A stretch of DNA of 64,000 bases from an uncultured Bacteroidales bacterium (GTDB taxonomy: Bacteria > Bacteroidota > Bacteroidia > Bacteroidales > Paludibacteraceae), in contig ONJT01000004.1 in assembly GCA_900318245.1 (NCBI GenBank), forward strand, positions 6,940 to 70,939, read 5' to 3'. Positions 3,258-49,483 of the stretch are shown piece by piece. The position numbers were made by a program, and so were the translations under genes. How positions within the stretch are numbered: position 1 is the first letter of the stretch; every line of letters begins with the position of its first letter. A model generated the notes under the pieces. The model saw only the letters and a program-made list of their open reading frames with translations, was not told where the DNA came from and did not search any database.

Positions 3258-5930
3258 ATGAAAAACGAAGGCAACATAGAGGTTATTGGAGCGCGGGTGC
3301 ATAACCTGAAGAACATCAGCGTGTCCATTCCCCGAAAACGACTGACGGTGATCACCGGTCTAAGCGGTTCGGGCAAATCCTCTTTGGCCTTCGATACCAT
3401 CTTCGCGGAAGGTCAACGCCGATACATGGAGACCTTCTCGTCCTATGCCCGTGGCTTTATCGGCCAGATGCAGCGCCCTGATGTGGATAAAATCACCGGT
3501 CTGAGTCCCGTCATTTCCATCGACCAAAAGACCACTTCCAAGAATCCCCGCTCCACCGTCGGGACAATTACCGAGGTGTATGATTTTTTGCGACTACTAT
3601 TTGCAAGAGCCGCAACACCCTATTCGTACCTATCCGGCAAGCCGATGATTAAGTTCACAGACGAACAGATCATGGACTTGATCGTGCGGGAATATGCAGG
3701 AAAGAAGATCCTATTGCTGGCGCCGATGGTGCGCGGTCGTAAGGGTCATTATAAGGAGCTTTTCGACACAGTCCGCAAGAAAGGATTTGTGCATGTGCGG
3801 GTGGACGGCGAGGTGAAAGAGATCACGCCGGGCATGAAACTCGACCGCTATAAGATGCACGATATCGAAGTGGTAGTGGATCGTCTCAAACCCAAGACCG
3901 ACGCTTCAGAAACCGATACCCGCCGTCTCAGGCAGTCCGTGGATCGGGCTATGACGCAAGGTAATGGTATCATGATGGTTGCCGACGAAGCCGGAAACAT
4001 CCGATTCTTAAGCCGCAACCTCATGTGTCCGGAGACGGGATTGAGTTATGCCGAACCCGCCCCGCATACCTTCTCTTTCAACAGTCCGTCGGGTTGGTGC
4101 CCATGCTGCAAAGGCCTTGGACGCGTGAAAAGTGAAGAGGTAAGTAATGCTGAAATCGATAAAATTATTCAATCGGATAATTGGTACGAACAATTAGTTG
4201 ATCTTACTTCATCCCCTTCCCGTGTTACGGTTTCCCCCGCTGGGGGACACCTAGGGTGGGAGAAGATAATGGAGTTATCCGAGCCAACCGAAGAGGATGA
4301 TTCGGAGAAAGAAGAGTGGATCGAGTGTCCGGAGTGTCACGGTTTAAGGTTGAACAAAGAAGCCCGCAGTTATAAGTTCGGGCGGCACACGATCTCCGAC
4401 CTCGCGAACATGGATATCGACGAGTTGATTAAAGTGCTATCGGAATACTCGGAAGACCCGGATTTATCCGATAAGCAGAAGGCTATCGCCGAACCCATCG
4501 TAAAAGAAATCATCGGTCGGTTGCAATTCATGCAGTCCGTAGGACTGAGTTACCTAAGTCTCAACCGCAGTAGTGAGAGTTTGTCGGGCGGTGAGAGTCA
4601 GCGTATTCGTTTGGCTACGCAGATAGGTAGCCGCCTCGTGAACGTACTCTATATCCTCGATGAACCGAGTATCGGTTTGCACCAGCGCGACAACCAACGA
4701 CTGATTAAGAGTCTGAAGGAGTTGCGCGACATGAATAACTCCGTCATCGTCGTCGAGCACGACGAACAGATCATGCGCGAGGCGGACTGGATTGTCGATA
4801 TCGGTCCAAAAGCCGGCCGTTTAGGCGGAAATGTGCTGTTTAGCGGTACACCGAAAGATTTATTAAAGACCGACACCTTGACGGCAAAGTATCTGAAGGG
4901 AGAGGTAGAGATACCTGTGTATCGAGATACAGAGACATCGAAGCCGTCGGATAAATGGCTTACGCTTTCCGGCTGCACGGGCAATAACCTGAAGAACGTG
5001 ACGGCGCGGATACCCTTAGGCAAGATGGTGTGCGTGACGGGCGTGAGTGGTAGCGGCAAGAGTTCGCTCATCAATCAGACGCTCTACCCTATCCTCAGTC
5101 AGCGTTTCTACCGCAGTAAAGCGCAGGCGCTGCCGTACAAGAACCTCGAAGGCGTAGAAGCGATCGACAAGGTCATCAACGTAGACCAGGCGCCGATAGG
5201 ACGCACCCCGCGTTCGAACCCTGCGACCTATACCAACGTGTTTAATGATATCCGCGAACTGTTTGCGCAGTTGCCGGAAGCGAAGATACGCGGTTGGAAA
5301 GCCGGCCGGTTTAGCTTTAACGCCAAAGGCGGGCGCTGCGAAGAATGTACGGGTAATGGCTATAAGACGATTGCGATGCACTTCATGCCGGATGTGTTTG
5401 TGCCGTGCGAGGTGTGCGGCGGGCAGCGCTACAACCGCGAGACACTCGAGGTACGATGGAAAGGTAAGAACATCGCCGACGTACTGGATATGACAGTGAA
5501 CCAAGCCGTAGAGTTCTTCGAGGCTCAACCCACTATCCTGCGCAAGATCAAGACCATTCAAGACGTAGGTCTCGGATATATCAAACTCGGTCAGTCGTCC
5601 ACCAGTCTCTCCGGAGGAGAGAGTCAGCGTATTAAGTTGGCGACGGAGCTGTCACGGCCTTCGACGGGTAAGACCTTGTATATCCTTGATGAGCCTACGA
5701 CCGGCTTGCATTTTGAGGATATCCGCGTACTGATTAACGTGCTGCGCCGCTTGGTGGACAAAGGCAACACGGTGGTCATAATCGAGCATAATACGGACGT
5801 CATCCGTGCATGCGACTGGATCATTGACCTCGGTCCCGAAGGTGGACGAGGCGGCGGACAGATCGTAGCCGAAGGAACGGCAGAAGAACTGCGCGGCAAC
5901 AAACAAAGCATAACTGGAAAGTACATATGA
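3258..5930 (+). CDS. uvrA: excinuclease ABC subunit A family ATPase (UvrA paralogue with a short insertion domain)
   Basis: 890 aa. Two ABC modules (GLSGSGKSSLAFDT, GVSGSGKSSLIN; LSGGESQR twice) and zinc modules CPCCKGLG / CPECHG and CEEC...CEVCGG. Confidence 0.9.
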   Translation: MKNEGNIEVIGARVHNLKNISVSIPRKRLTVITGLSGSGKSSLAFDTIFAEGQRRYMETFSSYARGFIGQMQRPDVDKITGLSPVISIDQKTTSKNPRSTVGTITEVYDFLRLLFARAATPYSYLSGKPMIKFTDEQIMDLIVREYAGKKILLLAPMVRGRKGHYKELFDTVRKKGFVHVRVDGEVKEITPGMKLDRYKMHDIEVVVDRLKPKTDASETDTRRLRQSVDRAMTQGNGIMMVADEAGNIRFLSRNLMCPETGLSYAEPAPHTFSFNSPSGWCPCCKGLGRVKSEEVSNAEIDKIIQSDNWYEQLVDLTSSPSRVTVSPAGGHLGWEKIMELSEPTEEDDSEKEEWIECPECHGLRLNKEARSYKFGRHTISDLANMDIDELIKVLSEYSEDPDLSDKQKAIAEPIVKEIIGRLQFMQSVGLSYLSLNRSSESLSGGESQRIRLATQIGSRLVNVLYILDEPSIGLHQRDNQRLIKSLKELRDMNNSVIVVEHDEQIMREADWIVDIGPKAGRLGGNVLFSGTPKDLLKTDTLTAKYLKGEVEIPVYRDTETSKPSDKWLTLSGCTGNNLKNVTARIPLGKMVCVTGVSGSGKSSLINQTLYPILSQRFYRSKAQALPYKNLEGVEAIDKVINVDQAPIGRTPRSNPATYTNVFNDIRELFAQLPEAKIRGWKAGRFSFNAKGGRCEECTGNGYKTIAMHFMPDVFVPCEVCGGQRYNRETLEVRWKGKNIADVLDMTVNQAVEFFEAQPTILRKIKTIQDVGLGYIKLGQSSTSLSGGESQRIKLATELSRPSTGKTLYILDEPTTGLHFEDIRVLINVLRRLVDKGNTVVIIEHNTDVIRACDWIIDLGPEGGRGGGQIVAEGTAEELRGNKQSITGKYI

Positions 5931-8360: not shown

Positions 8361-9387
8361 ACGGCACCTCATCTATCGCGCAGAAATCGCGGTCCAAATA
8401 CTTGAAATAACCGGCCTGGCACACCATAGCCGCGTTGTCGGTCGTGAAAGAGAAAGGCGGGATAAAGACGTCCCAATGGTATTTCGCGCCGTAGTCCACA
8501 AAAGCCTGCCGCAAGGCGCTGTTGGCACTCACGCCGCCGGCTACGGCTACTTGGTTAATGCCTAAGTCCTTGGCGGCTTTCTTGAGTTTGCGCATCAAAA
8601 TATCGACTACTGTCGCTTGCAGCGACGCACACATGTCCTCGCGCAGGTTCGGCACCCGCTCCGCTAACTCGTCTATCGTCTCTACCCCGTGCGCCTTGAG
8701 CATGTCGCGCAGCGTGTAGAGGAACGAGGTCTTGAGCCCCGAGAAGGAGTAGTTGTAGTTCGGGATATTGGGCTTCGCAAAGGGATACTTGGTCGAATCG
8801 CCGAGTTTGGCGAGTTTGTCTATCCACGGTCCGCCCGGGTAAGGCAGGCCTAAGACCTTGGCGCATTTATCGAATGCTTCGCCGGCCGCGTCGTCGATCG
8901 TCTGGCCGATGATCTCCATATTATTATACGCGCGCACCAGCACGATCTGGCTGTTACCGCCGGAAACCAAGAGACATAGGAACGGAAAATTAGGATGCTT
9001 GAGACCCGTGCCATCTTCGACAAAGTGCGCTAAAACGTGTCCTTGCAGGTGATTTACATCGATAAGGGGGATGTTGAGCGCAAGGGCAAGACCTTTGGCA
9101 AAAGAGGTTCCGACGAGCAGCGAACCGAGGAGTCCGGGACCGCGGGTAAAAGCGATCGCAGAGAACTCTTCTTTGGTCACGCCGGCACGCTTGAGGGCCG
9201 TATCGACCACCGGCAGGATGTTCTGCTGATGGGCGCGGCTAGCCAGCTCCGGCACGACGCCGCCATACTCCTCATGCACCTTCTGCGAGGCGATGACGTT
9301 ACTGCGGAGCACGCCGTCCACGATGACCGCCGACGAGGTGTCGTCGCAACTGGATTCGATCGCTAATATGACTACGGGTTTATCCAT
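8341..9387 (-). CDS. tsaD: tRNA N6-adenosine threonylcarbamoyltransferase TsaD
   Basis: ILAIESSCDDTSSAV..., GGVVPELASRAH, VAGGVSANSALR. The ORF-track N-terminal 24 aa read through the promoter, so the start is trimmed to MDKPVVILAIE. Confidence 0.93.
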   Translation of the reverse strand: MDKPVVILAIESSCDDTSSAVIVDGVLRSNVIASQKVHEEYGGVVPELASRAHQQNILPVVDTALKRAGVTKEEFSAIAFTRGPGLLGSLLVGTSFAKGLALALNIPLIDVNHLQGHVLAHFVEDGTGLKHPNFPFLCLLVSGGNSQIVLVRAYNNMEIIGQTIDDAAGEAFDKCAKVLGLPYPGGPWIDKLAKLGDSTKYPFAKPNIPNYNYSFSGLKTSFLYTLRDMLKAHGVETIDELAERVPNLREDMCASLQATVVDILMRKLKKAAKDLGINQVAVAGGVSANSALRQAFVDYGAKYHWDVFIPPFSFTTDNAAMVCQAGYFKYLDRDFCAIDEVPYAKTTI

Positions 9388-9461
9388 ATTCTCAAAAACG
9401 GCTGCAAAGGTACGAAAATATTTGCATATATGCAAAAAAAAGTGTAACTTTGCGGCCAATT

Positions 9462-10730
9462 ATGAAAACTTTGCTACTCATACTATCCCTTATAACGCTC
9501 TATCAGGGGCGCGTTGTGGACCAAAACGGCCAGCCTATTCCGTATGCGACAGTGTATCCGGAGGCGCAGCCGGAAGTAGGTACGGCGACCAATAATGACG
9601 GTTTTTTTGCCTTCCAAGCCGACCTGCCGGAGCACAGCGAAGTCATCTTCTCGTTTATCGGTTATGAGAAACTGAGCATGCCCTTGGTGCTCTTGCGTGC
9701 CAATGACTCGTTGGTCTCGACCATTACGCTCAAGGAACAGCCGATCGCGCTTGAAGAGACGGTCGTAGCCGCAAAAGCCAGCAAGCAGCGGAACAAGCGC
9801 AAACAAATGGCCGCCCTACTCCACGCGGTGTTTGTCAAACTGGAGGAAGAGTTTCCGGACGAGAATGCCCAGTATCAGGTGGTGAGCGATGTACGGATGT
9901 TGTCGGAAGGCAGCACCTGGGGCATGGAGCAAATGATCGCTAATATTGTGGTCATGCCGGAGCAATGCCGCGACGGGCGGGACTCCGTGCAGTTCCAAGG
10001 GCGTTTCTGCAAGCGCTTCTTCGATGCCCAGAAACGCGCCCAGGCCGATTCGATCCTTGCTTCCGACGCCCTTGAGCACATGGAGAAACAGAGTAAGGCA
10101 CCGGCCGGCACACCCAGCAACTACATGCGCAAAGCCGCTAACGCCGTGGATTCGGGTGTGGTCGTTCACCGCGCGCTTTTTGCGATGGGAAATATGCGGT
10201 ATGACTTCGAGCAGGCGATGAATGACTTACGTCATTGGTCCGTCAGCAACGAATCGGAAGGCGAGACGGTACTGACGCATACGGAGAGCGTGAGCAAGTA
10301 TCTCGGGTGCTTTAAGATGACCTTCCAGCGCCATTATATCGTCGATTCGCGCACCTACTCCGTGCGCCGTTTCTCCGAGCACGCAGAAGTAAAAGTGACG
10401 ATACCTTTCGGCATCAAACTGAACGCGGAGCAGCTGCAAATGTTGAATCTCGTCAATATGGGCGATCAGGATATTGAGAAGTTCCGCCTGAAGAAACTGC
10501 GCGGGAATATTGACCTCAATACCATCTACCAGCGCCGCGACGGACAAGTCTATACGCTGGAGAAGAACATGCTCGTCAATGCCTTTATCTTGGGTTCGAA
10601 GAAAGCCGAGATACCATTGGTTATCAAGGCGACGCAGCGCGTGACAGGACTACAGACACAAGACGTCAAACCCCTCAAACCGTCCCAAATCACCCGCCGT
10701 CTCAAGCGTGAGATTGTAGAGATTTATTAA
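9462..10730 (+). CDS. carboxypeptidase-regulatory-like domain protein, secreted
   Basis: Signal peptide MKTLLLILSLITLYQG followed by a GRVVDQNGQPIPYATV... CarbopepD_reg-like beta sandwich. TAacTTTG box at 9444-9451. Confidence 0.6.
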   Translation: MKTLLLILSLITLYQGRVVDQNGQPIPYATVYPEAQPEVGTATNNDGFFAFQADLPEHSEVIFSFIGYEKLSMPLVLLRANDSLVSTITLKEQPIALEETVVAAKASKQRNKRKQMAALLHAVFVKLEEEFPDENAQYQVVSDVRMLSEGSTWGMEQMIANIVVMPEQCRDGRDSVQFQGRFCKRFFDAQKRAQADSILASDALEHMEKQSKAPAGTPSNYMRKAANAVDSGVVVHRALFAMGNMRYDFEQAMNDLRHWSVSNESEGETVLTHTESVSKYLGCFKMTFQRHYIVDSRTYSVRRFSEHAEVKVTIPFGIKLNAEQLQMLNLVNMGDQDIEKFRLKKLRGNIDLNTIYQRRDGQVYTLEKNMLVNAFILGSKKAEIPLVIKATQRVTGLQTQDVKPLKPSQITRRLKREIVEIY

Positions 10731-13235: not shown

Positions 13236-13630
13236 GAACCAGGTGGAGACCTGCAGGAGATGAGGAGGCGGATAGCATCCGCGACAACGAACGACGCAAA
13301 CCGGCATCCAATGCCGGTCTAACTGACAAAGGACGCCGATTAATAATCGGCAAAATGGACAAAGCCCCCTAATAGTAAAAACAGAAAAACCACCGCAGGT
13401 AAACAGCCTGCTACACTCCGCATGGCGCTACAACCGCATTTATCCTGTATCGGGCGGGCCCTCGGCGTTTGTAGCCTCGAGCATCGTGATACAAAGACGA
13501 GGGACGATACAGGATAACCCGTCCGCACGTAGAGGGCGGACAACGAAGCGGTAATCCGCCTACACCGCGAGTCCTGAAAAAGGCACAAGAGAAAAAAGTT
13601 GCCGCAAAAATGCGACAAAGATGCAAATTA

Positions 13631-17265: not shown

Positions 17266-17453
17266 ACGAAGGAATAAAAAAGGCGTGCCCGCGATGCGGC
17301 GCGCCTTTTATTTGCCATCACGAGAATCCTGCGATCTGCCAGTGCGCGGGAGTTACATTAAACGAAAAAGCGCGCGCATTTCTGCGCACGCATTATTCGG
17401 ATTGCTTATGCAGGGCATGCCTGATAGAGGTTGCCAGAAACCTAGGAAACTAG
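17262..17453 (+). CDS. cysteine-rich CWC-family small protein
   Basis: 63 aa with a CPRCGAPFIC...CQC...CLCRAC pattern. ATGA overlap with the amylase gene. Confidence 0.6.
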   Translation: MNEGIKKACPRCGAPFICHHENPAICQCAGVTLNEKARAFLRTHYSDCLCRACLIEVARNLGN

Positions 17454-18475
17454 TATAATTTCGCTGCAAAGTGCAGCGTGGAATCGGGGGCGTTATTCAG
17501 GATGTGAATAACGTCCTCGAGCATTTCTTCGGGGTGTACCACACCTCGCTCCCAGAAATTATTTGCTCCACCGGCCTTGACTTGCCTGCGCCAGTTATAT
17601 ACGCGGCCGTCTTGGTAGGCTTTGAACCACGTATGCTTCTCGTCTAATTGAGCGAGTTCGGCCAAGCTGTTTCCTCCGGCTCCCACCCACACATCCGCGT
17701 CGTGGAAATAACGCAGCGTCTCTTCTATCGTCAGCGGAATAGAGGTCTCGCGTTCGTCGTCATAGAACGGATAGTCTGCGCCGGCATCCTTGAAGAGATA
17801 CGCCAGGTAGTTCTTGCCGGAAGGCACGTACCAAGTGCCTCTAAAATTATTGCCACTCATAATTTTAGAGGATTTGACATTGGAGATTGAAGATTTGAGA
17901 TTGTTATACTTCGTCTCTACTTCGTGGAAGACCGAGTCGGCTTCGCGGAGGCGGCCGGTGAGGGCACCGAGCACACGGATCCATTCGGCCCGCGCGAGCG
18001 GTGAGCCTTCCTGCCACTCGTTGATATAGATCGTCGTCACGCCGAGTTTCTCCAGGCGCGTCGCTTCGAGGTTGTCGTATTGGCCGTAATTGACGGCTAA
18101 CAACGCGTCTAAGCCTGCTTGGAGCGTACGTTCAGCCGAGGGCTTCATCGAATCGCCGAGGTCTATCTCATCGCCTTTGACAGGCGTGTAGATCAGTTCG
18201 GGATTACAGACAGCTACGAGGCAGTCCAAGGCATCAATCGCGTAGAGAAAGCCCACCTGCACGGTGCTCATGGTTCCCAGACGACGCAGCGGCTCCTTGA
18301 TACAAAGACGCTGGTAAGGTTGGAAAACCTCCACGATCGTACCTGTGTCCGTAGGCGTGATTTGAAAGCCTGCAGCGTATTTATTCCCTATGGGAATACT
18401 ACCCTGCTCTGCGGACTGTTTAGCACAGCCCGCAAAGCAAAGCAGCAATCCTACTATCGGTAATAAACGTCTCAT
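17450..18475 (-). CDS. periplasmic-binding-protein (BtuF/FhuD-like, Peripla_BP_2) lipoprotein
   Basis: Lipobox LLLCFAGCAK. Cluster-A-like binding protein architecture. Last gene of the B12 locus. Confidence 0.7.
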   Translation of the reverse strand: MRRLLPIVGLLLCFAGCAKQSAEQGSIPIGNKYAAGFQITPTDTGTIVEVFQPYQRLCIKEPLRRLGTMSTVQVGFLYAIDALDCLVAVCNPELIYTPVKGDEIDLGDSMKPSAERTLQAGLDALLAVNYGQYDNLEATRLEKLGVTTIYINEWQEGSPLARAEWIRVLGALTGRLREADSVFHEVETKYNNLKSSISNVKSSKIMSGNNFRGTWYVPSGKNYLAYLFKDAGADYPFYDDERETSIPLTIEETLRYFHDADVWVGAGGNSLAELAQLDEKHTWFKAYQDGRVYNWRRQVKAGGANNFWERGVVHPEEMLEDVIHILNNAPDSTLHFAAKLY

Positions 18476-45732: not shown

Positions 45733-46623
45733 TTACTCGTTGCTACCTAAAAATGCAATGTTCTTAAGAGGAAGAAGGTTCTTATCCTCATCCGTCATCT
45801 TTGCGTAATACTTTTGCCACATCGTGATAAACTCGTCGCCATCAATGAGTTTGACGTACTCTTTGCTAGTGCTTGCTTCTTGTTTTGCCGGAGGTGTAAA
45901 CGTCCCCGACGTAACAAACAAACCAATGTCTCCGTCACGCAGGATGCCCACCAGACTGCGTATTTCTTTTGCCCCAATTGGGGTGTCCGGGTAGTGCTTA
46001 ACTTGCACCTTTATACGTGGAGTCTGCGCACCGAGCGGATCTACATACGCCAATACATCAACACCACCATCCTTTCCTTTTGGAGCAACGAAGGGAGTAT
46101 GATAGTCCATAGCACGAAGGAGTGCAGCTACGAGATCTTGGAACTCGTAGGGGTTCTTTTTGCGGATATAATCACGGATTCCATTAAGAGCGCGCTCCTC
46201 TAATTCCTCTAAGTCAATGATAGTAGCCTTTGCATCTTCTAATTCCTCCCCATCATCACCAGAGGCATCTTTTGCATGCTCTTTTTTCCAAGTCCGATAT
46301 GCAGTCTGTGCTATTTCTTGAATCTCTTCGGGAGACTTAGAAAGAATTTTTTCTCCCTCAGGGGTCAGATACCAAATACTATTCTTCTTGATAAGGAATC
46401 CCGCAAGGACATAGTCCACAGATGAGAAATGATAGATGTTCTGCCAACGGACACCTCCTTTGGAGGTAGTTTCCATTTCGTAGTCAGAAAACTCAACCTC
46501 ATTTCCTACTTGTTCCATCAATTGACCGGAACGCATGCTACCCCCATTTTTCTTGAGGATAGAGAGGGCGGCATACATACTCTTTGCCGCAGTTAAGAAA
46601 GTCTTAGAATATTCTTTTGTCAT
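45733..46623 (-). CDS. Mrr-like restriction endonuclease (Mrr_N winged helix + Mrr_cat)
   Basis: N-terminal wHTH (AALSILKKNGGSMRSGQLMEQV). C-terminal nuclease core GKDGGVDVLAY...IKVQVKH...GLFVTSGTF. Start trimmed to MTKEYSK. Confidence 0.8.
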   Translation of the reverse strand: MTKEYSKTFLTAAKSMYAALSILKKNGGSMRSGQLMEQVGNEVEFSDYEMETTSKGGVRWQNIYHFSSVDYVLAGFLIKKNSIWYLTPEGEKILSKSPEEIQEIAQTAYRTWKKEHAKDASGDDGEELEDAKATIIDLEELEERALNGIRDYIRKKNPYEFQDLVAALLRAMDYHTPFVAPKGKDGGVDVLAYVDPLGAQTPRIKVQVKHYPDTPIGAKEIRSLVGILRDGDIGLFVTSGTFTPPAKQEASTSKEYVKLIDGDEFITMWQKYYAKMTDEDKNLLPLKNIAFLGSNE

Positions 46624-46636
46624 ATCTCGTGGTATT

Positions 46637-47036
46637 TTATTCAGGTAAACTATGATGCCACACATTATTCTTATGCAGGCACAGAATGAGTTGGCGGGCA
46701 TCGGGGTTGCCGAGGTCCGCTGCGCGGAGCAACATGATATCCGCCTCGTCGCGGGAGACAGTGGTGCAGGACGCAGGGAAAGAGGCGGGGTCCTGCCACT
46801 TTAGGTACGCTGCTGCGCCGGTGATGAACAGTGCCCTGGGGTCCTCGTCCAAGTACGCGCGCTCCGCATAATATAAAAGAGAATCGGGGTCACAGAAAAC
46901 AGAACTGCTGACCTCGACCGGAGAAGAAGCGGCACGATAACCGCACACAAATACACCAATAAAAAATAAACCTAAGAATGCAAGCGAGACGTGCTTTGCG
47001 ACATTTCCCTTACTGGGGGGGGGTAAAATTGAACAT
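46637..47036 (-). pseudogene. lipoprotein gene (Sel1/TPR-like C-terminus) interrupted by a C9 tract; phase-OFF candidate
   Basis: The ATG at 47036 reads MFNFTPPQ* with C9 (47015-47023). With C8 it continues as MFNFTPPSKGNVAKHVSLAFLGLFFIGVFVCGYRAASS... into the 46637..46948 ORF. TACCTTTG -7 box at 47077-47084. Confidence 0.55.
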
Positions 47037-47171
47037 TTGATTTTGTGTTGTCATAGTGTCAAAACCTTTGCGGCTGCAAAGGTACAATAAAAAAATGACA
47101 TACACAAGGAAAAAGAAAAAAAATCGGCATGCAATGCCGCATCAATAGACGAAACTCCCCTAAACAGCCAT

Positions 47172-47309
47172 CACCGAAAGTAAATACCCACCGGAGGTAT
47201 ACACCCACCGGAGGTAAGCACAAAGGGACGCCCGCCTGCCTGCCCACCGAAGGTACGAACAACAGAAAAACAAACTAACCACCGGAGGTAAACACAACGA
47301 CCGAAGGTA
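47172..47309. repeat. six direct copies of CCACCGRAGGTA
   Basis: 11-mers start at 47172, 47189, 47206 (17-nt tandem period), 47245, 47280 and 47299. Confidence 0.9.
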
Positions 47310-47382
47310 ACAGCAAAAAAGAAGAAAAAAAGCAAGCGCGCTTGCGTATATCAGAAAAATATTGTATCTTTGCAGCCGGATT

Positions 47383-48186
47383 ATGAAAAAAGGCAAGATA
47401 CATACGTGGTGGGAAGCGATGCGGGAGCGGATGAAGGCGTGGCGGGAGCGGCAGACGCAGGAATACGGCGAGGTAGAGGCGACAAGCAAGCGCATCACCA
47501 TCGAGAGCGTGACATCGAACTTCCTCGACGTATGGGGATTCGGTAATAAGAATATCTTCATCACTCTCAAGCACCTGTTCTGGCGTCCGGGATTCATGAT
47601 GCGTGACTATCTCGAGGGCCGTCGCGGACGAATCATGCAGCCGGTGATGATGCTCGTAGTGCTGACGCTTGTGCTGATGTTCATGGTAAAAGTGATGCCG
47701 GTGGAGGTCGTTCCGCGGCAAGATGTGGGTTCTCAGTTCGATGAGCTGCGCATCAAACTGATGAACACCGAAGAGGCAGACAGCGAGGATAAAGCGAGGG
47801 CACTACGGTTCGTAGATGGAGCGGAGAAATTCGCCGTCATACTCGAGAAAGTACGCCAGTGGGAAGACGAGCACCCGGATTTCGGGTTGCTGCTGCAGTT
47901 CTCCTGGACGATCTTGCTGCTATGGTTGCTGTTCCGCAAGACGGAGGACAAAACCTATAACTTCGCGGAGATCATGACGGTGGTATGCTACGCGCTATGC
48001 CAGCTGCAAGCGATCTCGATCGTATGGCTGCTATGCACGGCATGGTGGCATCCGCAGATCAGTTTCCATCCGTTTATATTCTCCTATTGGATTGCACATA
48101 TCGTGTTCTTCATCGACTTTCAACAGCTGTTCCAACGCCGCTGGTGGTCGACCTTATGGCGCACGGTGATTGCATTAGCGTTCTAA
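47383..48186 (+). CDS. DUF3667-like membrane protein (no zinc ribbon)
   Basis: RITIESVTSNFLDVW...TLKHLFWRPGFMMRDYLEGRRGRIMQP matches the DUF3667 core as I recall it. Four TM segments. TATCTTTG box at 47365-47372. Confidence 0.5.
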   Translation: MKKGKIHTWWEAMRERMKAWRERQTQEYGEVEATSKRITIESVTSNFLDVWGFGNKNIFITLKHLFWRPGFMMRDYLEGRRGRIMQPVMMLVVLTLVLMFMVKVMPVEVVPRQDVGSQFDELRIKLMNTEEADSEDKARALRFVDGAEKFAVILEKVRQWEDEHPDFGLLLQFSWTILLLWLLFRKTEDKTYNFAEIMTVVCYALCQLQAISIVWLLCTAWWHPQISFHPFIFSYWIAHIVFFIDFQQLFQRRWWSTLWRTVIALAF

Positions 48187-48187
48187 G

Positions 48188-49483
48188 ATGAGAAAGGTCC
48201 TGCTTTTGATATTCCTCGGCGCAGCCTTCGCCGGTTGGGCGATGCCGCATTATGAGTTAGCGTACAAGCTTACCGGCAACGGCTCGATGATGATGCCCGA
48301 CGGGAAGGTCGATCAGTTCGTGCAGCGGCCTGTCTTAGGCGGTTCGTTTGCCGTGGAATTCCTGCCCACCGGCCGCTGGCATTGCTTGCAGCAATGGAAC
48401 AACGCGTCGATAGGCGTCGGGGCGACGTACCTGAACCTCGGCAATGAGGCGTTCTTAGGTTCGGCTATCGCGGCTTACGGCTATATGAATCAGCCTTTCT
48501 ATAACGGCGAGCACTTCCGTATCGGCATCCGTCCGACCATCGGATTGGCCGCTGTGACGAAGACCTACCGCAATACCCTACCCGCCGAATATGCGCCATA
48601 CAGCATCGCGCAGAAAGACGGTAAGTTGGTGGCCAACTGGTCTATCGGTTCGATCCTCAATGCGTACCTGGCGGTGGACCTGTACATGGATTTCCCGATC
48701 AAAGACGGTTGGGAGATCACGCTCGCCGGCGGATGGCATCATATCAGCAACGGCTCCATCATGCACCCGAATGCGGGCTATAACATGTTCGGCGGAGAGT
48801 TGGGATTGCGATATCATCCCGTAAAGAGTGAAAGATATGAGAAGCCGAAGCCCGATGTGCCGCGGAAATTATACGACGGCGTAGAGAAGAAATGGGCGGT
48901 GGAGATCAGCGCGACGGGCGGCATGAAGCAGAACTACTACAAGGATAATATCAACGGCATGCGGTTCTACGGCATCGCTACGCTCAAAGCCGCGGCGTAC
49001 TGGGTGCCGGTAAGTATCTTCCGCCTCGGCGCCGGTGTGGACGCGTTCTACGACGGCTACTACAGCGCGGTGAACGACGACTATGCGGCTGAGAACCCGG
49101 GTGCGCCGGTGACTTATTTCGACAAGACCTACCTCCGGACAAGCGATATAAAGAACTGTTTCCGCGTCGGCATCAGTATTCAGCCGGAGTTTATCATCGG
49201 TCATCTCACCGCCGGTATACACGTCGGATTCTATGTCTTCGACCCGATCAAGAACCTGGAGAACAAAGAGGAGATACTTACCAAACACGGCGGAGAACCG
49301 TATAACTTAGGGATATTTTATCCCTACGACTTCTCGCAAGCCAGCAATAAGAAAGACGGATGGTGCTACATGCAGTTCGTGCTGAAGTACCACGTGCTGG
49401 ACAATCTGTTTGTTCAGTTGGGACTGAAGACCCACGGCGTACGCGCCGAGTTCATTGATGCCGGAATAGGCGTGGCCTTCTAG
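48188..49483 (+). CDS. acyloxyacyl hydrolase / PagL-like outer-membrane protein
   Basis: Signal peptide, beta-barrel-like sequence, and GWHHISNGSIMHPNAGYN (the H-x-S-N motif of lipid A deacylase-type enzymes). Confidence 0.5.
   Translation: MRKVLLLIFLGAAFAGWAMPHYELAYKLTGNGSMMMPDGKVDQFVQRPVLGGSFAVEFLPTGRWHCLQQWNNASIGVGATYLNLGNEAFLGSAIAAYGYMNQPFYNGEHFRIGIRPTIGLAAVTKTYRNTLPAEYAPYSIAQKDGKLVANWSIGSILNAYLAVDLYMDFPIKDGWEITLAGGWHHISNGSIMHPNAGYNMFGGELGLRYHPVKSERYEKPKPDVPRKLYDGVEKKWAVEISATGGMKQNYYKDNINGMRFYGIATLKAAAYWVPVSIFRLGAGVDAFYDGYYSAVNDDYAAENPGAPVTYFDKTYLRTSDIKNCFRVGISIQPEFIIGHLTAGIHVGFYVFDPIKNLENKEEILTKHGGEPYNLGIFYPYDFSQASNKKDGWCYMQFVLKYHVLDNLFVQLGLKTHGVRAEFIDAGIGVAF

Follow-up and report, generated by a model that had tools for sequence, protein, structure and literature searches.

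A repeated 11-bp box between a lipoprotein-like gene and a DUF3667 gene belongs to a dispersed intergenic repeat family, possibly of the BrickBuilt/BOX-like kind, in a rumen Bacteroidales genome

A stretch of 64,000 nt from an uncultured Bacteroidales bacterium of the Paludibacteraceae (assembly GCA_900318245.1, contig ONJT01000004.1, positions 6,940 to 70,939; hereafter the window) carries six direct copies of an 11-bp box in the intergenic region between a lipoprotein-like gene and a DUF3667 gene, and these copies belong to a repeat family that is dispersed through the same genome. The family has a fixed module order and is confined to intergenic DNA; it is new and previously undescribed, and the kind of element is one that is already known. 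The block at 47116-47309 is considered, with a probability of roughly 55%, to be a truncated copy of a dispersed, modular, non-coding repeat of the BrickBuilt/BOX-like kind with a slippage-prone minisatellite, carried by a rumen Bacteroidales (Paludibacteraceae-like) lineage. The assembly of this genome (G000) is 92% complete and comprises 2.26 Mb in 56 contigs, with a G+C content of 50% and about 91% coding sequence; C27 denotes the contig of the window, and other C numbers denote its other contigs.

All six boxes lie on the plus strand, at the positions given in a first-pass annotation made from the sequence alone, and read CACCGRAGGTA, two of them with one mismatch. Box 1 (CACCGAAAGTA, 47172-47182) is degenerate, with a change of G8 to A that destroys the C:G pair predicted to close the loop; boxes 2 (47189-47199), 3 (47206-47216) and 5 (47280-47290) all read CACCGGAGGTA, box 4 reads CACCGAAGGTA (47245-47255) and box 6 reads GACCGAAGGTA (47299-47309). 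The spacing of boxes 1-3 confirms the 17-nt tandem described previously; Tandem Repeats Finder gives no score for these three 17-nt units, the run being too short. Within the array a GC-rich insert, AGCACAAAGGGACGCCCGCCTGCCTGCC (47217-47244, plus strand), separates boxes 3 and 4, and the same insert is present in the arrays of C50 and of a related metagenome-assembled genome (MAG; L006, L021). The recurrence of the box is not random, as the window contains ten matches with at most one mismatch versus 1.56 +/- 1.28 in 100 shuffles, none of which reached ten.

Genome-wide there are 34 exact CACCGNAGGTA boxes, of which 27 are intergenic and fall at 14 loci within the non-coding part, some 9% of the genome; the other seven lie inside long open reading frames (ORFs), which is about the level expected by chance. 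The box loci adjoin unrelated genes (mreB, dnaK, prfB, gyrA, and genes for NAD kinase, an AraC regulator and a histidine kinase), in no consistent orientation (eight co-oriented with the neighboring gene, six not). The motif is thus a dispersed genomic repeat, which is largely the outcome named in the first-pass annotation as refuting its own reading. Arrays with the 17-nt period are found at C17:4385-4465 (five boxes), in the window on C27 (six), at C50:3545-3625 (five) and at C38:186410-186437 (two); elsewhere the boxes are single. Each of the three arrays with at least five boxes is located upstream of a paralogue of a small lipoprotein gene; this common position of the long arrays is attributed to shared ancestry of the loci, since segmental paralogy is evident in the C36 copy, which is 94% identical to the window over 127 nt.

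The modules follow one order: a leader, one to six boxes on the 17-nt period, and a GC-rich tail. The leader precedes every box or array and consists of an A-run (in most copies), a hairpin of variable stem, and then ATCAATAGACGAAACTCCCCTAAACAGC, also written ATCAATAGACGAAACTCCCC(C)TAAACAGC; the 17-bp unit is made of CACCGNAGGTA plus about 6 nt; and the tail of full copies reads ...GCTACACCCGCATTGAGCCCGAAGCGGGCGGGGCGGCG..., followed by a hairpin, ATAATAGACGACGCGGCGGACGCGAGGGCGAA, and then ...GCGGTAATCCGCCTACACCGCGAG. Partial copies also exist, with the leader only at C36 and at C30:47.6 kb and the tail only at C17:32.6 kb. The window copy (47116-47309) consists of leader and boxes; its homology to a full element of the related MAG ends just past box 6 (at ACAGC), and the tail module is therefore absent.

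The box near 13389-13403 that had been regarded as an orphan is real (CACCGCAGGTA, 13391-13401) and is part of the same family, being the box of a second, single-box composite copy at about 13310-13600 on the plus strand; this copy runs from the hairpin GCCGATTAATAATCGGC through AAAATGGACAAAGCCCCCTAATAG, the box and AAACAGCC to a tail ending ...GCGGTAATCCGCCTACACCGCGAG. Single-box copies read AAACAGC-box-AAACAGCC, which equals 1.4 units of the 17-nt repeat and is what would be expected if arrays grew from one unit by slippage; the AAACAGC words that flank single boxes likewise read better as a partial 17-nt unit than as a target-site duplication. As a separate observation, a 221-nt contig from a ribosomal RNA-depleted rumen metatranscriptome (X28, depth 24) matches 13443-13519, the nested-hairpin module of this second composite copy, and extends beyond it into a further mosaic module, so that transcription of some family modules is possible.

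In the window copy the leader module occupies 47116-47171 on the minus strand: an A8 run at 47116-47123 is followed by the hairpin CGGCAT-GCA-ATGCCG (47125-47139), and CATCAATAGACGAAACTCCCCTAAACAGCCAT, the conserved word, takes up 47140-47171. A terminator scan scores this hairpin on the minus strand as intrinsic-terminator-like, with T8 after it; it is positioned directly upstream of the promoter of the lipoprotein operon. Eleven leader copies are found besides that of the window, and the stems vary among copies (CGGCAT, GCGGGAT, CCGGCAT, CGGAAT, GGGCGAT) yet are always paired. Across the 12 copies, changes on both sides are seen at four of seven stem pairs, and 94% of cells are paired; pairing falls to 24-50% when the partner is slid, and none of 500 shuffles matched the observed score. 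The left hairpin is thus a covariation-supported, terminator-like structure on the minus strand that is maintained by compensatory changes. The array had been described as bracketed by two hairpins; these are separate features. The left one, after the A8 run, is genuine, belongs to a repeated leader module and is terminator-like on the minus strand. The right palindrome, GCAAGCGCGCTTGC (47332-47345, no strand assigned), does exist, although its folding is not better than that of shuffled sequence (z = -0.1); it sits at the -33 element of the DUF3667 promoter, whose TTG it overlaps, and is not a bracket of the array.

The number of boxes differs between loci, species and strains. The related MAG, the goat-rumen Paludibacteraceae bacterium RGIG3390, represents a different species, and its DUF3667 orthologue (79% nucleotide identity) has another upstream neighbor and no boxes; in this MAG an array almost identical to that of the window adjoins an extracytoplasmic function (ECF) sigma gene, and modules have therefore been exchanged between non-orthologous loci. 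A four-box array with leader and tail is also present there, upstream of the lipoprotein orthologue. Among metagenome contigs, one joins 47211 to 47305 (box 3 to box 6), which amounts to a deletion of 93 nt, and its right side is unique sequence that runs into the start of DUF3667; another has 47330-47341 replaced by 54 nt, and several contain a CCG insert at 47231. A joint adding 34 nt (47221 to 47188) is seen in runs X1 and X4, which hold this strain, and is indistinguishable from the longer C17 array.

The closest counterpart is BrickBuilt of Porphyromonas gingivalis, a MITE/minisatellite (MITEs being miniature inverted-repeat transposable elements) with 19 copies that are always intergenic and are restricted to the species or lineage; it has a leader, a 23-nt tandem unit in one to about 23 copies and a tail, and many copies are without leader or tail (Klein et al. 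2015, PMC4596501). Both families are found in Bacteroidales and are multi-copy, intergenic and of narrow host range, with a leader/tandem/tail build, partial copies, and an imperfect unit that has conserved and variable positions. They differ in unit length, 23 nt in BrickBuilt versus 17 nt here, and are unrelated in sequence; the classification of BrickBuilt as a MITE rests on its small terminal inverted repeats, whereas none were found here, and the 11-bp unit core of the present family, unlike BrickBuilt, recurs in different spacers in other species, in prophage and in another order. The BOX elements of Streptococcus pneumoniae follow the plan boxA - boxB(n) - boxC and are hairpin-rich, with boxA and boxC partly complementary. 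As here, they are modular, intergenic and hairpin-rich, with a variable-number middle between two unlike end modules, and are not known to have a transposase of their own; their effects on neighbors are incidental, as those of the present family would be. However, they belong to a different phylum, have unrelated sequence and a much higher copy number, and the leader and tail of the present family are not complementary. Repetitive extragenic palindromic (REP) sequences and bacterial interspersed mosaic elements (BIMEs) of enterobacteria have conserved stems and are tied to Y1 transposases, the REP-associated tyrosine transposases (RAYTs), and their units often act as terminators or mRNA stabilizers. 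They are likewise an intergenic mosaic of short palindromic units and linker words; the assignment of the present family to REP/BIME with RAYT was rejected, as there is no Y1 transposase and the stems vary with compensation.

On the BrickBuilt/BOX-like reading, the box array would be a minisatellite whose unit number rises and falls through unequal recombination or slippage during replication; this may be aided by the mini-hairpin rule of ACC-GNA-GGT and by pairing of neighboring boxes, provided that these fold in the cell. The family would spread through recombination and persist as selfish or neutral DNA, and any local effects would be incidental, such as insulation of the operon promoter from upstream minus-strand transcription and a variable distance between the divergent promoters. 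Several points weigh against this reading. No terminal inverted repeats were found, the only pair around the full C50 copy being the flanking promoters; neither a clean empty site nor a target duplication was found, the metagenome joints being dominated by module cross-mapping; and no partner transposase was identified, the 92%-complete genome having no Y1/RAYT (PF01797) match in a search that did find its controls. The absence of RNA from the array rests on assembled metatranscriptome contigs, which are blind to rare transcripts. The location of all three arrays of at least five boxes upstream of phase-variable lipoprotein paralogues may be more than shared ancestry. Lastly, 14 of 101 genus genomes, a prophage and a Flavobacteriales MAG all keep the 11-bp box although its spacers differ; this is unexpected of purely neutral DNA and therefore points to a function.

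The box itself has a simple grammar, in that only ACC-G.A-GGT is fixed across the family and the center base is free. In the boxes of this genome the center is G in 14, A in ten, C in five and T in two, with flanks of at most about 1.1 bits; in the arrays of other species, where the looser pattern ACC-N3-GGT was used, the centers are GCA (55), GGA (47) and GTA (7), others occurring at most once each, such that 109 of about 113 words have a GNA center. The sequence rule of the C-GNA-G mini-hairpin is obeyed by 29 of the 31 family boxes of this genome. GNA loops alone form extraordinarily stable DNA mini-hairpins, which melt at 70-76 C (A>G>C>T by stability) and need a closing C:G pair, and the ssiA priming signal of RSF1010 includes CCGAAGG (PMC13037366, PMC3201870). 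The box core CC-GNA-GG follows the rule of these DNAs (d(GCGNAGC), ssiA, the phage G4 origin), with a sheared G/A pair, any apex and a closing C:G, and boxes 4 and 6 have exactly the CCGAAGG of ssiA as their core. The known GNA hairpins, however, are single, are located at priming or origin sites and act as single-stranded DNA, whereas here the candidate hairpins form tandem chromosomal arrays. Neighboring boxes are predicted to fold together at -6.8 kcal/mol as DNA (z = -2.6), and the box strand is the G-rich strand by GC skew at 12 of the 14 loci, including a flip along C30, but at only four of seven loci in the related MAG. That G5 and A7 are strictly conserved in different species and in prophages, while N6 is free, suggests that the box may also be read as a structure or by a protein; a function read by protein or from the single strand is, in all its forms combined, a minority possibility.

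The free center base also bears on several looser resemblances. The likeness of the box to GGAGG on one strand and CCUCC on the other, emphasized in the first-pass annotation as Shine-Dalgarno (SD)-like and anti-SD-like, is coincidental because the center base may be any of the four; it is an accident of the G variant. Mimicry of 16S helix 45 or of a CsrA-type GGA hairpin was rejected in the same way, as GGA is not conserved; a minus-strand box (TACCTTCG) acting as a decoy -7 promoter element was rejected because its TTTG part is precisely the unconserved part, and a minus-strand G-quadruplex because it is not conserved in the phage arrays.

The 17-nt tandem form was found only in this genome and in RGIG3390 among 185,579 species, each represented by one genome, and was not found in 36 other species of the same genus; for the leader, no significant match was obtained in the rest of the genus. 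Twenty-nine stretches matched the tandem pattern and six were read (L003, L006, L008, L012, L018, L021); the matches in L003 and L018 are 18-nt coding repeats of the T-P-E-V type and were excluded from the family. Looser box pairs, with N4-40 between the boxes, are present in 14 of 101 genus genomes versus none for the reversed control, and some of these matches are host mosaic regions of similar style upstream of promoters. In 60 genus genomes box plus A (CACCGNAGGTAA) is matched 145 times and its reversed control 48 times; the corresponding counts in this genome are 22 and one. In a Flavobacteriales MAG (CBDFGG01), 16-nt tandem arrays of the box (CACCGAAGGTA + CCCGA/CCAGT) are found at two apparently non-coding loci (L008:2794-2852, L012:4584-4640), whose flanks contain further short repeats (GCGAAGC...). 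In G008 (L077:6459-7046, equal to G008 C100:36458-37045) a tandem of higher order is also observed, with a unit of about 119 bp, at least five copies, and three boxes and two hairpins per unit; it is located at a contig end beside a promoter.

Four genomes of the genus, from four species (G022, G068, G087, G122), have box arrays of 300-600 bp at module junctions of a tailed prophage, whose genes include those for a large terminase, a portal protein, an amidase and a tape-measure-like protein of 1359 aa; this prophage was not found in the present genome. On the sense strand of the phage genes, TACCTNCGGTG is in every case the reading of the prophage arrays, and two box subtypes, GCACCGCAGGTA and CCACCGGAGGTA, alternate within them. 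The arrays (L078:8465-8860 and 8880-9560 in G022; L075:3270-3900 and 17270-17830; L079:4340-5760) flank small cassettes, namely a 73-aa gene with a HicB-like gene, and a 113-aa gene; in G022 another phased word, RRGACTGCAAAGG, fills about 650 bp between the array and the promoter of the tape-measure-like gene.

Recognition of the 11-bp box (YACC-GNA-GGTR, a near-dyad) by a DNA-binding protein of the genus, whether a regulator, a nucleoid protein or a recombination or replication factor, is the alternative that survives best, and is itself unlikely; arrays would then load several copies of the protein upstream of promoters or at cassette junctions. In its favor are the core conserved between species, prophage arrays and the Flavobacteriales MAG with wholly different spacers, the excess of CACCGNAGGTAA over its reversed control, the alternation of the two subtypes in phage arrays, and the placement of arrays beside small prophage cassettes and, in the host, beside the restriction-modification (R-M) slot. 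Against it, no candidate protein was found; the neighboring genes are unrelated, with no fixed orientation or promoter distance; the paralogous slot on C36 works without any box; the 17-bp spacing corresponds to about 1.6 helical turns and places adjacent sites on different faces of the helix; and the prophage that carries arrays in other genomes is absent here. A more far-reaching form, considered doubtful, takes ACC-GNA-GGT to be a functional Bacteroidota word, acting as a single-stranded mini-hairpin or through a dedicated protein, and the arrays to be landing pads that mark points of cassette exchange; priming or loading on a transiently single-stranded template, or a recombination factor, would operate at such points, which would include the host R-M slot behind the phase-variable lipoprotein gene and the small prophage cassettes. 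This would explain how one 11-bp core has survived, with spacers that differ, in chromosomes of the host, a prophage and a Flavobacteriales genome.

The array could instead serve as an expression rheostat, in which the lipoprotein/R-M operon or DUF3667 is tuned, by spacing or phasing, according to how many 17-bp units lie upstream of the -33 element; this appears improbable. Such a role has precedents in promoter-upstream repeats that tune phase-variable genes, namely the TAAA tract at nadA in Neisseria and the 7-bp repeats at hmw in Haemophilus. The likeness is that of a variable-number repeat upstream of the promoter of a phase-variable gene; those tracts, however, are private to one gene and their effect on expression has been demonstrated, whereas the boxes form a dispersed family. 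It is in keeping with a rheostat that every array of this genome with at least five boxes, together with one of the two arrays of the related MAG, is 50-130 bp upstream of the promoter of a lipoprotein paralogue with repeats in its coding region, and that unit number at the window locus differs between strains. The shared position is nevertheless explained by segmental paralogy, a minus-strand terminator stands between array and promoter and leaves the array outside the core promoter, identical arrays adjoin unrelated genes, and no upstream activator is known.

Arm-type or accessory recombinase sites marking the right border of the low-GC R-M islet, another suggestion of the first-pass annotation, are considered very unlikely. 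The array does lie at the junction between the islet and DUF3667, the DUF3667 orthologue of the related MAG has another upstream neighbor and no boxes, and prophage arrays flank small cassettes; however, none of the six matches to Phage_integrase (PF00589, tyrosine recombinases) in the genome is on C27, C17 or C50, serine recombinases lying outside that search, and synteny with RGIG3390 is too rearranged to define a clean insertion, its ADH neighbor being absent from this genome. Moreover, the other islet border has no box, and boxes are also present at island-free loci (mreB, dnaK, prfB, gyrA). Nor are the boxes iterons, which had also been proposed: they occupy 14 chromosomal loci beside unrelated genes, not a single replicon-specific cluster with an initiator. 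A C-box of an R-M system was rejected, as there is no controller gene and boxes are also present at non-R-M loci; KOPS-like polarity words (FtsK orienting polar sequences) were rejected for a copy number that is far too low.

The least credible alternative is a small RNA or RNA sponge with SD-like repeats on the plus strand or anti-SD-like repeats on the minus strand, despite the terminator-like hairpin with T8 that closes the block on the minus strand, the strongly skewed composition of the plus strand (A 43%, C 29%, G 19%, T 8%) and the 221-nt metatranscriptome contig on another family module at 13443-13519. Five metatranscriptome runs contained no RNA contig over 47118-47339 (assembled contigs, which miss rare RNAs); in four of these runs, from rumen, RNase P RNA of this lineage reached depths between hundreds and tens of thousands, both flanking genes are covered by low-depth contigs of relatives, and the match of one run to the stretch is to the promoter consensus only. 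No Rfam (15) match was obtained up to E = 10 over 46000-48500, or for the boxes, leader or tail in 16 related loci, and neither strand has a TAnnTTTG promoter directed into the array, the terminator being on the minus strand only. The block as a whole shows no notable folding (minus strand, z = -2.0; plus strand, z = -0.5; the full C50 copy gives about -2.1 on both strands), and GGAGG is not the conserved feature of the box. Bacteroidetes make little use of SD pairing, which also counts against such an RNA.

The genes on either side of the array are as first annotated. The DUF3667 gene (PF12412, 42.5 bits) is on the plus strand at 47383-48186; the lipoprotein-like gene is on the minus strand at 46637-47040, with a C9 tract (G9 on the plus strand, 47016-47024), and heads an operon that continues with Mrr, an N6-adenine methylase and HsdS. 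This R-M operon is contained in a low-GC islet (33-44% G+C, 42-46.5 kb). Both divergent genes share a Bacteroidetes-type promoter architecture of TTG, a 20-nt spacer and TAnnTTTG: the operon promoter spans 47077-47107 on the minus strand (TTG at 47107-47105, -7 box TACCTTTG at 47084-47077), and the DUF3667 promoter spans 47342-47372 on the plus strand (TTG at 47342-47344, -7 box TATCTTTG at 47365-47372) and is kept at the orthologue in RGIG3390, where the boxes are absent. The promoter consensus of this genome is unusually long, reading TTGnnTATGT, about 12 nt and then TTGTACCTTTGCAGCCGCAAAGG (in the window at 47059-47109 and 47341-47378, and at more than 100 other places); its 3' portion is the palindrome CCTTTGC-N4-GCAAAGG, which extends across the -7 box and transcript start, and the consensus including this palindrome has well over 100 genomic matches. 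The 38-nt inverted repeat formed by 47071-47108 and 47341-47378 arises because these are two copies of the genome-wide consensus, and was accordingly rejected as the ends of an invertible or mobile element.

The lipoprotein-like gene has five paralogues in the genome, which differ in the simple repeats at their 5' ends (C9 in the window, C8, C6 and (CA)n), and boxes are located upstream of four of the five. The (CA)n tract of the C17 paralogue has about 17 units (L058:~330-365, C17:~4230-4265); further paralogues are found at L064 (C36:~5030), L056 (C50) and L060 (C30:~6000), and the orthologue in RGIG3390 has C8 and is in frame.

Elsewhere in this genome, a divergent spacer of 630 bp at C21:47180-47810 (L054:280-910) is built wholly of reshuffled modules, with three tandem units of about 100 nt, each comprising the hairpin GCGCCGGATAATATCCGGCG, AAACAACAAACGCTACACTCCGCAGGGGCTACACCCGCGAG and the hairpin CGGCCGCAAAAATGCGACCG; blocks of this type yield spurious ORFs of 110-200 aa. 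A near-threshold match to the Rfam family RAGATH-32 (36.8 bits versus a gathering score of 41.8, E = 3.6e-5) is located at L063:112-190 (C30:47411-47489), about 110 nt upstream of the leader-only copy on C30. Finally, a non-coding element of about 160 nt, TACCTACGGTCT...CTACCTGCCGGTGGCTGCA..TACCTCCGGTGGGTGAC...GCGAGCGTCCGGCT, contains three boxes, one of which has a four-base GGCA loop (L112:100-260 on C4, L113:130-300 on C6, L043:1450-1620, L108, L109, L110, L111). It is about 90% conserved among five species of the genus, has two copies in this genome and usually begins right where an intrinsic-terminator-like hairpin ends the upstream gene; the predicted fold pairs the two adjacent boxes, and the element may represent an RNA gene or one end of a mobile element.

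Recognition of the array as part of a dispersed family removes two tempting readings, that of a ribosome-binding-site mimic and that of a private operator beside a phase-variable defense operon. In this uncultured rumen lineage, a limited set of modules, reshuffled from place to place, makes up the intergenic DNA; for annotation this matters in that repeat blocks give spurious ORFs (110-200 aa), break assemblies and mimic regulatory arrays, and for strain typing in that box number differs among strains. Of wider interest is the C-GNA-G grammar with its free apex, which is common to the most stable DNA mini-hairpins known and is kept across species and prophage; if the box is indeed read by a protein or as single-stranded DNA, this would provide a new handle on the origin and persistence of such repeat families in Bacteroidota.

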